Shown here in pieces: positions 1 to 3,395 of a DNA stretch of 39,293 bases; positions within the stretch are counted from its first letter, which is position 1; each line of letters begins with the position of its first letter. The notes under the pieces are model-generated. The model did no database searches. It was given only the letters and a program-made list of their open reading frames with translations, and was not told where the DNA came from. The translations under genes and the position numbers were made by a program. Source of the DNA: Kofleriaceae bacterium (GTDB lineage Bacteria > Myxococcota_A > Polyangia > Haliangiales > Haliangiaceae); contig JBKJLC010000100.1 in NCBI GenBank assembly GCA_046597055.1, positions 1-39,293 of the forward strand. Direction: 5' to 3'.

Positions 1-216
1 GAGCCCGTCTTCTACAACCCGCACGGGATCGTGGTGCACGCGGTGCCGCCGCGCCCCTCGCTCGGACTCCTCTCCTGGGACTACCTGCGTGAGCGCAATC
101 GCGATCTGGCGATCACGCCACAGACCGGCCAGTGCGAGTGGGACGGCCTCCCGGTCAACTACGGGTATGTCCTGAGCGACCTCCACTACTTCGCCACCCA
201 CGACACACCCGGATGA
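1..216 (+). CDS. 3' end of a protein of unknown function (truncated by window edge)
   Basis: Frame 1 is open from base 1 (EPVFYNPHGIVVHAVPP...YFATHDTPG*) with GC3-rich codons and stops at TGA 214-216; no family recognised. Confidence 0.6.
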   Translation, partial: EPVFYNPHGIVVHAVPPRPSLGLLSWDYLRERNRDLAITPQTGQCEWDGLPVNYGYVLSDLHYFATHDTPG

Positions 217-362
217 CGCTCCGCACGAGAGATCGACACCATGTCGAGACCGCGTTGACCGCGAGGCCCGGGCCCGCGGTGCAGGCCGCGCGGGTGGAAG
301 CCGTGCTGGGACGATCCAGTACGGCTCGGGGTCGGGTCCGGAAAGGTTCAAGATCAGGGGTA

Positions 363-546
363 GTCGCCGGCCTGTGGGGGGCTGTGGATTGGCGCGCCCA
401 TCCACGCCGCTCGCCGGATACCCACGACCCGCAGGCGCGGCAATCCAAGCCGCGGTGGGCAGGCGCGCCCATCAGTCTTCCTGGGAGCGGTCCGGGCTTC
501 GAAGGCGCGGCTGTCCACGGCGGCGTCAGAGTCCACAGGCCCCGAC
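363..546. repeat. Nested inverted-repeat element (three-way junction with two matched arms); possible ncRNA or MITE/IS-end remnant
   Basis: Outer stem GGCCTGTGG 369-377 / CCACAGGCC 533-541; arm A 381-398/434-450; arm B 449-469/504-524; direct repeats GGCGCGCCCATC at 391 and 462 and AGGCGCGGC at 433 and 503. Confidence 0.65.
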
Positions 547-608
547 GTGACGGCCAAGCGCTCAAGTCTTGCCGCCACGACCCTGCCGCGACGGCGCGCC
601 GACCGCGC

Positions 609-930
609 TCAGGGCGCGGCGCTGGGCGGCTTGCGCGCGACCACCATCACCGGGCAGTGCGCAGTGCGCACGACTGTCGGCCGTGGACCCGACGATCGCG
701 CGCGTCCACCCGCCGCGGCCGTGGCTGCCGACGATGATCAGGTCGACCGCCCGCTCGCTCGCGACCCCGCCACGATCTCGGCGGCGGCCGCAGCCTCGAT
801 CCAGAGGGTCTCGACGTCGACCGCGCCGAGGTTGGCCGCGGTGAGGCGCTCGCCCTCGGGCGCGTCCTGGAACCTGCGTGACCAGGTCCGACATCGCCTC
901 GCGGTCAAAGGCGCCGCTCGGGCTTGATCA
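609..930 (-). pseudogene. Universal stress protein (USP) remnant with frameshifts
   Basis: Pieces in different frames read ..VDVETLWIEAAAAAEIV / VASERAVDLIIVGSHGRGGWTRAIVGSTAD / VVRTAHCPVMVVARKPPSAAP*; GSHGRG..GS and CPVMVV are USP signatures; 5' boundary approximate. Confidence 0.7.
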
Positions 931-977
931 ACCCCTCTCGGCGGCGAGCCCGCGGTCGAAGGTCGGTAGGAGCGTGC

Positions 978-2158
<1,181 letters not shown>

Positions 2159-2162
<4 letters not shown>

Positions 2163-3355
2163 GGCTGGCGTTCCTCGACGTGCCAGGGCAGGCCGCGGGC
2201 GGCGACGTCGGCGAGGAACGGATCGGGATCGAGCTCCTCCATGTTGAAGACGCCCGGCTGCTTCCACTTGCCGGTGACCATCATCACCGCGCCCGACACC
2301 GCCGGGACACCGGTGGTGTACGAGACCGCCTGGGCCCGGACCTCGCGGTACGTCTCGGCGTGGTCGCACACGTTGTAGATGAAGACCTTGCGCGGCTTGC
2401 CGTCCTTCACGCCCTCGACCAGGCAGCCGATCGAGGTCTTGCCCGAGTAGCCGGGGGCCAGCGACGCCGGGTCGGGCAAGAGCGCCTTCAGCAGCTTGAT
2501 CGGCACCACCGGGACCTTGCCCTCGTACAGCACCGGATCGATGCGGGTCATGCCGACGTTGCCGAGCACCTCGAGGTGCTTGAGGTAAGGCTCGCCGAAG
2601 GTCATCCAGAACCGGATGCGCTCGAGGCCGCGGATGTTCTGGGCCAGCGACTCGAGCTCCTCGTGATAGAGGAGGAAGCTCTTGCGCTCGCCGACGCCGG
2701 GGTAGTCGAAGGTCGCCGCCACGCTCAGCGGATCGGTCTCCTTCCACTCGCCGCGCTCCCAGTAGCGACCGCGGGCGGTGATCTCCCGGATGTTGATCTC
2801 CGGGTTGAAGTTGGTGGCGAACGCCTTGCCGTGACTGCCGCCGTTGCAGTCGAGGATGTCGATGTACTTGATCGAGTCGAACAGGTGCTTCTGCGCGTGG
2901 GCGCAGTACATGTTGGTGACGCCGGGGTCGAAGCCCGAGCCGAGCACCGCCATCAGGCCCGCGTCGTAGAAGCGGTCGCGGTAGGCCCACTGCCACTTGT
3001 ATTCGAACTTGGCGACGTCGGGCGGCTCGTAGTTCGCGGTGTCGAGGTAGTTCACGCCGGCCGCGAGGCAGGCGTCCATGATCGCGAGGTCCTGGTAGGG
3101 CAGCGCGACGTTGATGACCACGTCGGGCCGCTCGGCCTCGAGCAGCCGGGTGGTGGCCGCGACGTCGTCGGCGTCGAGCTGGGCGACGCGGATCTGGCGC
3201 CCCTGCACCGCGCGGATCTCGGTCTGGAGCTTCTCGCAGCGCGACAGCGTGCGGCTGGCGAGCAAGACATCGTCGAAGACGTCGCGTGCTAGCGCACACT
3301 TGTGGGCGACGACACCGCCGACACCGCCGGCGCCGATGATGAGGACCTTGGCCAT
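2159..3355 (-). CDS. Carboxynorspermidine/carboxyspermidine dehydrogenase (saccharopine dehydrogenase family)
   Basis: Rossmann VLIIGAGGVG, NVALPYQDL, YLDTANYE, GSGFDPGVT, DCNGG, FATNFNPEINIRE, HEELESL, AVSYTTGVP; coupled to nspC. Confidence 0.92.
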
Positions 3356-3395
3356 GAGCATCCTGTATCACGCGCCATGCGGGCCGGGCGAGCGG

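Follow-up and report, generated by a model that had tools for sequence, protein, structure and literature searches.

A branched 200-nt repeat shared by Y1 and DUF222-HNH gene cassettes of Myxococcota, and its likeness to a predicted chromosome origin

What is a branched hairpin with two matched arms doing near the start of a contig, and what might it serve? The question arises at positions 363–546 of contig JBKJLC010000100.1 of a Kofleriaceae bacterium, the whole of which, 39,293 nucleotides, is called the window here. An earlier note on this DNA had described the structure as an orphan three-way-junction element with two variable inserts, and had likened it to a dual-guide RNA.

We found the coordinates, the two frames, the inserts and the arms of that description to be correct. 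The outer stem is formed by GGCCTGTGG (369–377) and CCACAGGCC (533–541), with GTCG (363–366) and CGAC (543–546) beyond it, and encloses arms at 385–398/434–447 and 449–469/504–524. The frame GGCGCGCCCATC..AGGCGCGGC occurs twice in the window, at 391–441 and 462–511, and in none of 100 shuffles; the inserts within the two frames measure 30 and 29 nt. A loop complement, CCGCTC (407–412) with GAGCGG (485–490), is present as well. The element proved to be longer than 363–546, reaching 5′ to about 326 through an AT-rich leader with GATC and 3′ to about 593. Its parts and neighbours are listed below.

1–216, plus strand: 3′ end (69 codons and stop) of a DUF222-HNH nuclease gene, found by tblastn; the contig starts inside the gene.
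326–360, plus strand: leader, AT-rich with GATC at 352–355, similar to the predicted host oriC in its unwinding region; its position is conserved across copies.
361–372, plus strand: trio-like zone (one TAG, 361–363) and GGCC spacer (369–372), degenerate in the window copy (strict trio run 0).
373–391, plus strand: tandem DnaA-box-like 9-mers by the oriC box matrix, 373–381 decayed to a run of G and 383–391 a good match.
363–384, plus strand: P1, 5′ strand of the outer stem, paired with 527–546 in the DNA fold.
385–447, plus strand: arm P2 (385–398 with 434–447) and loop L2 (399–433); both-sided changes at 7 of 14 pairs, loop identity about neutral.
449–524, plus strand: arm P3 (449–469 with 504–524) and loop L3 (470–503), with a box-like word at 511–519; both-sided changes at 11 of 21 pairs.
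478–487, no strand assigned: decayed copy (3 mismatches) of the palindrome TTCCGCGGAA, in L3; it is intact or nearly so at the same loop position in the copies on contig C208.
527–546, plus strand: P1, 3′ strand of the outer stem, with a box-like word at 529–537 (DNA fold, alignment and box matrix).
547–593, plus strand: 3′ tail with the usual subfamily terminus (581–593), preceded by an insertion of about 38 nt that copy comparison also finds in C146 and C236.
591–904, minus strand: decayed, frameshifted gene fragment carried with the unit, sharing 91% identity over 316 nt with an intact gene on C224; from a sequence motif we take it to be universal-stress-protein-like.

The element-bearing unit lies just past the 3′ end of two adjacent minus-strand genes (978–3361), presumably encoding carboxynorspermidine decarboxylase and carboxynorspermidine dehydrogenase.

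Fold, copies and covariation

The single-sequence fold of the window copy was unexceptional for DNA of 72% GC (z of −1.3 on the plus strand and −1.4 on the minus strand), so the case for structure rests on homologues. The minimum-energy fold of the plus strand as RNA was a different one, and DNA parameters gave the three-way junction. Iterated nhmmer, one of the checks that the earlier note had proposed, found 16 copies in the genome of the window (G000), of which a covariance model recovered 15. In genome G087, 91 copies were found, and relatives reach another order of the class (G037). The copies are branched and about 190–210 nt long.

We aligned 40 near-full copies from eleven genomes (alignment A1) and found the pairs of the three-way junction in 88.7% of cells. 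Both-sided changes occurred at 18 of the 40 pairs. The covariation score reached 0.272; shuffling gave 0.108, and sliding the partners gave no more than 0.085. These figures uphold the view that structure is under selection, but as support and not as a probability, because the structure was drawn from the same, related sequences. The near-invariant letters are the TGTG and CCAC words: columns of the box cores were 95% conserved, as against 63% for distal stem columns, which covary. A G.T pair in P1 was kept in 29 of 40 copies, and a G.T or non-standard pair was present at P3 columns 136–198 in 39 of 40. The plus strand folded better in 35 of the 40 copies with DNA parameters and in 26 with RNA parameters. 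G.G mismatches, reported for both arms, are indeed there in the window copy but not throughout the family; like the 6-nt loop complement, they are specific to a subfamily or a copy. The window copy is, by its sequence, a partly decayed member of this family.

An Rfam family did not supply the identity of the element, since no match reached the gathering threshold in the window (best E 3.3, at 230–640). The scaffold pattern had no match in viral contigs, and the titled records that matched it were Kofleriaceae and Myxococcales MAGs. The taxonomic range was drawn from 26 hand-picked genomes, namely G000, five known holders and 20 others; among the 20 not picked for the element, 3 were positive, one of them with a weak earlier DNA match, and 17 had no model match, some of these being genomes with many Y1 or HNH genes. 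The covariance model found nothing in G073, G119, G106 and G046, which have 22–25 Y1 matches each, or in G100, G107, G064 and G078. Our literature search, in which DnaA boxes in transposon hairpins were not asked for directly, found no description of the element; TIR sequences (PMC3733652, Figure 9), REP tables (PMC6006769) and supplements could hold a relative. We conclude that the 200-nt branched repeat with its three-way junction is real and, within the scope of that search, uncatalogued.

Partner genes and the units that carry the element

The element is not an orphan, and the window is not free of a nuclease gene as had been thought. The piece at 1–216 was 86% identical over 69 aa (aa 357–425) to a full protein encoded on C208, which carries PF02720 and PF01844, placing the gene among the DUF222-HNH (13E12/REP13E12) repeats. 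Its read depth was 2–3 times that of single-copy DNA in three runs. In G000, 14 of the 16 copies adjoin a DUF222-HNH gene or a Y1 (HuH) transposase gene. Seven are at DUF222-HNH genes (4 of 5 gene 3′ ends and 3 of 4 gene 5′ ends), the two at C208 both pointing outward, and seven are upstream of a Y1/HuH gene of 240–248 aa (7 of 7 gene 5′ ends with flanking sequence); two copies, both partial, had no partner in view. The Y1 protein has a fold like that of ISDra2/IS608 TnpA and E. coli TnpA-REP. Y1_Tnp was its only Pfam match, with PF01797 above cut-off for the C119 protein, and NF047646 gave 29 bits for two G009 proteins, below its cut-off of 80. Of 121 genomes examined in the family, 104 had the Y1 gene, with up to 25 matches per genome.

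In G087, 83 of 91 copies (E ≤ 1e-5) lay beside a DUF222-HNH or Y1 gene, in keeping with the suggested link to insertion-sequence-like genes. Sixty-three were just 5′ of a DUF222-HNH gene and 20 just 5′ of a Y1 gene, all 83 on the strand of the gene. Most of the HNH frames were open. In G027, from another family, 19 of 30 copies were at Y1 genes and others at two further HNH families, and the 7 copies in G037 were mostly at HNH genes. Copies in G013 were placed outward of an HNH-RuvA_C gene. G072 had near-identical element-HNH-element units, and neither profile nor Pfam model found Y1 in this genome, which is 93% complete. The partner enzymes are unrelated, comprising Y1 and three different DUF222/HNH families. 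Around the partner gene the element occurred in all four orientations, in back-to-back doublets and in element-Y1-element units; a Y1 gene between long inverted copies (L143/L144, L156/L157, L063) was a minority arrangement. At L133, L137 and L150 it was on the non-coding strand only.

The element is also optional. It was present at only 1 of 29 sampled loci of the window's HNH gene family in other genomes, and a regular expression for a single arm matched at four of 28 Y1 loci, one of 29 HNH loci and one of 120 control windows, for the most part at copies that had been found before. This patchy occurrence, cassettes that thrive without the element, and the 8 of 91 G087 copies with no listed partner within 1 kb would suit a repeat with no role for the cassettes, either selected independently or acting as a DnaA sink or operator for a neighbouring promoter, and gathering at the same intergenic sites. 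We consider that reading highly improbable: in G087 the element was present at 59 of 67 HNH loci and 10 of 11 Y1 loci, whereas about 3% of the genome lies so near to such genes, and neither a sink nor an operator needs covarying hairpins.

We compared the units that surround the element. Ten G087 copies shared the order minisatellite, leader, element, palindromes, promoter-like region and HNH gene, with similarity ending at or shortly past the stop codon, and in G000 the Y1 unit ran from a hexamer repeat through leader, element, promoter-like region and Y1 gene to the stop. Judged by this order, HNH and Y1 units have one chassis with different enzymes, and the element is a module that both cassette types share. 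Just 5′ of the leader, independent lineages carried simple or minisatellite repeats of unrelated units (18-nt, 6-nt, CT runs), at L210–L219 in G087, at C119, C144, C285 and C48 in G000, and at L101 and L172.

The far ends of the units were ragged. In the window unit, about 315 nt belong to a decayed copy of the C224 gene, and there is no element beside the intact gene; C146 and C236 have the same piece with deletions and different end points, both deletion forms being found in independent contig sets. Tandem Y1-element arrays were present, and G009 and G087 had permuted and tandem copies. The unit on C208 has inverted ends, with no target-site duplication evident. In contigs of the window's strain (Logan, two stretches), which show presence and not absence, no circle, tandem or fold-back joint was seen. 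Ragged ends with tandem and permuted copies fit, as we infer, replicative copying without a fixed far end.

At L072, L074, L075 and L079 of G009 and at L131/L132 the units were circularly permuted and terminally redundant, a piece of the Y1 3′ end preceding element and full gene. Internally deleted HNH cassettes at L221 and L222 (G087) and L165 (G013) kept the element and the gene 3′ end, and a DUF222-HNH copy in G000 (C262:19036–20316, L129), 86% identical to that on C208, had no element and retained no more than a remnant of the leader region. The Y1 genes at C146, C189, C240 and C285 in G000 are followed on their 3′ side by short repeats of other families, which are more abundant. DNA 3′ of Y1 in a record titled Vicinamibacterales (L032) matched G009 locus L078; since the contig is probably mis-binned, we did not count it as spread to another phylum.

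The Y1 gene raises the question of whether the element is its substrate. On this account the element would be an oversized REP- or TIR-type structure, recognized by a TnpA-REP-like Y1 enzyme. Having bound the folded strand, this enzyme would cut close by and mobilise the element together with its own gene and, as passengers, DUF222-HNH genes. The fold of the protein suits such a role, as do the four orientations, the doublets and the element-Y1-element units. A Y1 gene was within the examined DNA at 31 of 33 metagenome loci, a figure biased by a search pattern built from mostly Y1-linked subfamilies, and no element matched in five genomes where the Y1 query found nothing. The conserved non-Watson-Crick pairs resemble recognition irregularities known from the available text of PMC8266576. 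TIRtrons provide a further parallel, for the accessible part of PMC3733652 describes TIRYT genes flanked by long, partly self-complementary inverted repeats that also dimerise. REP/REPIN/RAYT systems, as PMC6006769 and PMC8266576 present them, likewise have an adjacent Y1 HuH gene, inverted doublets and imperfect, strand-specific stems.

The differences are substantial. The element is a branched structure of about 200 nt and not a palindrome of 20–40 nt as in the REP descriptions available; GTAG is found at 360–363 of the window copy, but such a tetranucleotide is not conserved across 43 copies; and few copies are free, namely two of the 16 in G000, each of them partial, and eight of the 91 in G087. 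REP membership was rejected on these three grounds of size, tetranucleotide and free copies. Unlike RAYT genes, the Y1 gene is itself multi-copy and has Y-x-x-N-N in place of Y-x-x-x-N-P, and the element is tied to HNH genes too; the family flanks Y1 genes, but the window copy follows an HNH gene. TIRYT proteins differ in that the Y1 clade has the motif Y-V-L-N-N-W and no C-terminal DnaA_C-like HTH, the only DnaA_C match in G000 being the dnaA gene. By eye, GGGGWSAS was not evident in alignment A1, and the repeats of the element are also direct, tandem or single, unlike those of TIRtrons. No Sorangium, Anaeromyxobacter or Haliangium example is named in the available main text of PMC3733652. 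We also rejected TIRYT subclass 2.1, as far as the accessible text of PMC6006769 defines it, for want of the HTH tail and for another Y motif. Recognition by Y1 would further leave the recent element-HNH-element duplicates of G072, where no Y1 was found, the 3 to 1 excess of HNH-linked over Y1-linked copies in G087, with most HNH frames open, and the origin-like layout described below unexplained. We therefore regard it as rather unlikely.

Loops and the guide-RNA question

IS110 bridge RNA has a fixed scaffold with two variable loops that pair with target and donor DNA, and the element resembles it in scaffold and loops. This part of the earlier comparison stands: across 33 pairs of copies the stems were 84–100% identical where the loops were 45–92% identical. 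The guide function does not. Loop identity tracked fourfold-degenerate sites of the linked Y1 gene (45–83%; 33 pairs), with no wholesale swapping, which means that the loops drift at about the rate of synonymous sites. In HNH-linked copies the stems were 99% identical though the gene differed at 53% of 34 fourfold sites, and in G087 the two loops had identities of 0.86 and 0.82 against 0.82 at fourfold sites; the G087 stem identity of 0.99 is biased upward because it was computed on the 7 of 10 copies that fit the stem pattern. Loop lengths were mostly 30–40 nt, and in one subfamily (L169–L171) one arm loop was reduced to a few bases.

We then compared the loops with their surroundings. Matches to their own 60- and 300-nt flanks were about as in permuted controls in eight comparisons (largest gap 6.70 against 6.39 ± 0.17), a test limited by the undefined true ends of the units. 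Against the genome the longest match was 16.0 nt, as against 14.9 nt in a crude shuffle with the same maximum of 19, which we did not take as signal. The proposed kissing contact dissolved on shuffling, with a cognate mean of 5.3 nt against 5.0 ± 0.15 and P=0.26 for the window copy. The neighbours identified for the element were Y1 and HNH genes, in distinction from IS110. A dual-guide or bridge-like RNA is not supported, and the element is probably not a guide RNA, the loops being about neutral, unmatched to flanks and nearly absent in some copies.

A transcribed structured RNA in a broader sense, partnering the HNH or Y1 protein as a dual guide or serving as a stability element, could draw on the G.U-compatible pairs, on the loop lengths, and on the commonest position of the element, 5′ of the gene and on the same strand (83 of 83 linked G087 copies). 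The RNAs of OMEGA systems sit in just this way. The neutral, unmatched and sometimes nearly absent loops, the missing Rfam match, the four orientations, and strands that are better separated by DNA than by RNA parameters (35 against 26 of 40) all weigh against it. Moreover, no sigma-70 promoter or terminator pattern was found at window positions 1–1100, and the partner genes have promoter-like sites of their own, seen by eye between element and gene. To us an RNA is scarcely credible.

The loops appear instead to be mostly neutral spacers that sometimes hold a candidate binding palindrome of the DUF222 protein. The palindrome TTCCGCGGAA had 29 exact matches in 108 kb of DUF222-HNH loci and none in 92 kb of Y1 loci; four of its six sites in G000 were at DUF222-HNH genes. 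Both C208 copies have it in L3, one without and one with a single mismatch; the two G072 copies have it in L2, and in G087 copies it stands at the 3′ foot. This parS-like palindrome is accompanied by a weak ParB/Noc likeness of the protein (Foldseek E 0.23), whose model had a pTM of 0.38 and no fold match at E ≤ 0.001. The cassettes differ from other DUF222-HNH repeats in being supplied with a 200-nt origin-like hairpin. A second palindrome, CCCACGTGGG, marks the centre of a face-to-face doublet beside an HNH gene of the RuvA_C-bearing type (L224/L229:512–906, G037), and was also seen inside RuvA_C-type HNH genes and outside another doublet (L036 flanks).

Origin likeness and a predicted DnaA loading site

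The 5′ half of the element drew our attention to the chromosome origin. We took the dnaA-dnaN gap of G000 and four relatives as oriC, which is predicted and not mapped; a scan for clusters of strict-consensus DnaA boxes had found none, and the G000 origin was then located via the dnaA gene. All five predicted oriCs had an AT-rich GATC tract, trios, a 4-nt GC spacer and two TGTGG boxes 9 nt apart, and the element 5′ half followed the same order on the folding strand. Tandem boxes with the distal one closer to consensus were present, though degenerate (window 373–391), the site at 383–391 being the best in the window copy under the oriC box matrix. The box period was 9 in 26 of 43 copies, as in 5 of 5 predicted oriCs, and 8–10 in 42 of 43 (10 in the window copy). 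Compared with 3351 control CTGTGG sites, the 43 copies more often had two or more YAG (51% against 1.9%) and GATC (72% against 32%), and they were richer in A+T (51% against 28%). A strict run of at least three trios was found in 12 of 43 copies and 2.5% of controls, with 0 in the window copy; the same strict count gave only 1–2 for three of the five predicted oriCs.

These features were combined in a composite score trained on four foreign oriCs, which ranked the G000 oriC first of 16.75 million positions. Twelve of the 16 G000 copies were in the top 232, and those missed were the window copy, C48 and two 5′-cut copies. The window copy scored 11.7, below the cut-off of 12 and in the top 0.3% of random stretches. 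The score exceeded 12 at 35 of 42 element 5′ ends, at none of 42 element 3′ ends, at 0.3% of random positions and at 0.9% of CTGTG-centred controls, counts to be read with the knowledge that the copies are related and not independent, that the form of the score was chosen after the element had been seen and that 5 of the 42 copies come from oriC-training genomes. Element-free cassettes were not enriched for it (5 of 23 Y1 loci and 3 of 18 HNH loci, against 4 of 25 random). Some lineages have a run of A in the leader and others a run of T, a variation more readily reconciled with DNA melting than with an RNA motif. Each of the three stems contained box-like words, though these include G.T pairs, and the best box lies across the P1/P2 junction. 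On this comparison, the 5′ half of the element reproduces the layout of the predicted host oriC unwinding module. As the available text of PMC8287927 describes the basal unwinding system of oriC, the likeness lies in the order and polarity of AT-rich tract, trios, GC spacer of about 4 nt and tandem boxes, with the distal box better conserved; the element differs in being multi-copy and mobile, with degenerate boxes, three trios in only 12 of 43 copies and fold-back arms that oriC lacks.

A module of this kind might work in duplex DNA, as an ectopic mini-origin or DnaA-driven melting site in which the leader is opened and the arms hold the bubble, giving local re-replication or a single-stranded substrate for Y1. 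The module is uninterrupted in the duplex; an AT-rich GATC tract is needed for melting and not for loading on a single strand; back-to-back doublets place two modules facing one central spacer; and the tandem and permuted copies would follow as well. However, 31 of the 43 copies, among them every one of the ten G000 copies examined for this, lacked three trios, and 91 live origins in G087 would be expected to be costly. We judge this account improbable.

The reading that we prefer, although we see it as evenly poised between right and wrong, is that selfish nuclease cassettes carry the element as a DNA module acting in cis, and that it is likely to be a site where host DnaA is loaded onto folded single-stranded DNA. 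The enzyme encoded by the cassette, Y1 or HNH, would make a nick, and one strand would be displaced or exposed. The plus strand would fold, P1 and P2 returning the tandem DnaA-box-like words to duplex while the trio zone stays single-stranded as a 5′ tail at the base of the stem. DnaA would then bind and DnaB helicase be loaded, and primase would begin synthesis of the second strand, much as the ABC primosome does at its hairpin A site. The DNA so copied would have no fixed far end, which would explain the ragged ends, the tandem and permuted copies and captured flanks such as 591–904. The module would be optional, raising the success of copying without being required for it. Loading of DnaA would thus account for the independence from any one enzyme, the sequence conservation near the junction with covariation farther out, the neutral loops and the strand polarity.

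The steps have precedents in the accessible portions of earlier work. DnaA oligomers form on scaffolds that combine duplex boxes with a single-stranded trio tail, and three trios are the minimum for origin activity in B. subtilis (PMC8287927). The A-site hairpin primes single-stranded DNA through DnaA, DnaB and DnaG (PMC6127211), second-strand conversion at single-strand origins uses host proteins only (PMC5714925), and sso activity depends on structure and orientation (PMC4595007). Several observations nevertheless count against DnaA loading. The junction breaks the strand complementary to the better box, and an intact duplex box needs stacking of P1 on P2, which we assume. Element-free cassettes are common and abundant, and the copies on the non-coding strand only (L133, L137, L150) are awkward for a strand-specific primer site. 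The window copy itself lacks a strict trio run, has a decayed first box and scores under the cut-off.

We compared the element with the A site of the ABC primosome (PMC6127211) and the rolling-circle sso (PMC4595007, PMC5714925), as the text available describes them. Like these it is strand-specific, has several stems and is of comparable size, and its stems contain DnaA-box-like words. Its strand specificity is seen in the plus strand, stabler in 35 of 40 copies, and in the origin-like score, confined to the 5′ end (35 against 0 of 42). An element of the A-site or sso type would need host proteins only and could hence serve unrelated initiators. The element differs from those described in being chromosomal, beside Y1 and DUF222-HNH genes and not on a plasmid, phage or ICE, and in adding tandem boxes, trios, an AT-rich tract and a three-way junction. 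Its predicted mode of action is that of an A site or sso; its arrangement resembles that of a REPtron or TIRtron.

A broader version of DnaA loading we offer only tentatively: unrelated chromosomal selfish genes of Myxococcota, the Y1 clade and at least three DUF222-HNH families, may share a portable origin mimic whose arms rebuild DnaA boxes on single-stranded DNA, and may propagate by diverting DnaA to the loading of the replicative helicase for their own benefit, a form of replicative transposition in which the enzyme only nicks and all further steps fall to the host initiator. If DnaA binding is confirmed, the element would be a chromosome-origin mimic that is mobile and multi-copy (91 copies in G087) and is used by two unrelated classes of selfish genes. 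This would join two questions, that of the substrate of non-canonical Y1/TnpA-REP enzymes which have no REPs and that of the way in which DUF222-HNH repeats multiply, and would provide an amplification route for the long-unexplained 13E12 repeats; the cell's initiator could be titrated or misdirected by its own repeats. If the DnaA reading fails, an uncatalogued 200-nt branched repeat would still widen the range of REP and TIR elements.

Related sequences were seen away from the element. Single-arm hairpins with TGTG/CCAC words flank other Y1 genes (L063:1173–1284 and 2487–2599; L068, upstream of Y1; L054; L067; L044), and by its appearance the element is one of these hairpins into whose conserved bulge a second arm has been inserted. 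A conserved word like TATCGGYGMAATCAA, possibly an operator or the left end of the Y1 cassette, was present at Y1 promoters with or without the element, at eight G000 sites (C119:39921, C48:7351 and six more) and in the upstream regions of L051–L069. Finally, two outward-facing tandem pairs of good DnaA-box-like words at C39:45172–45212 in G000, ranking 4 and 10 in the scan, mark a possible DnaA-regulated site.
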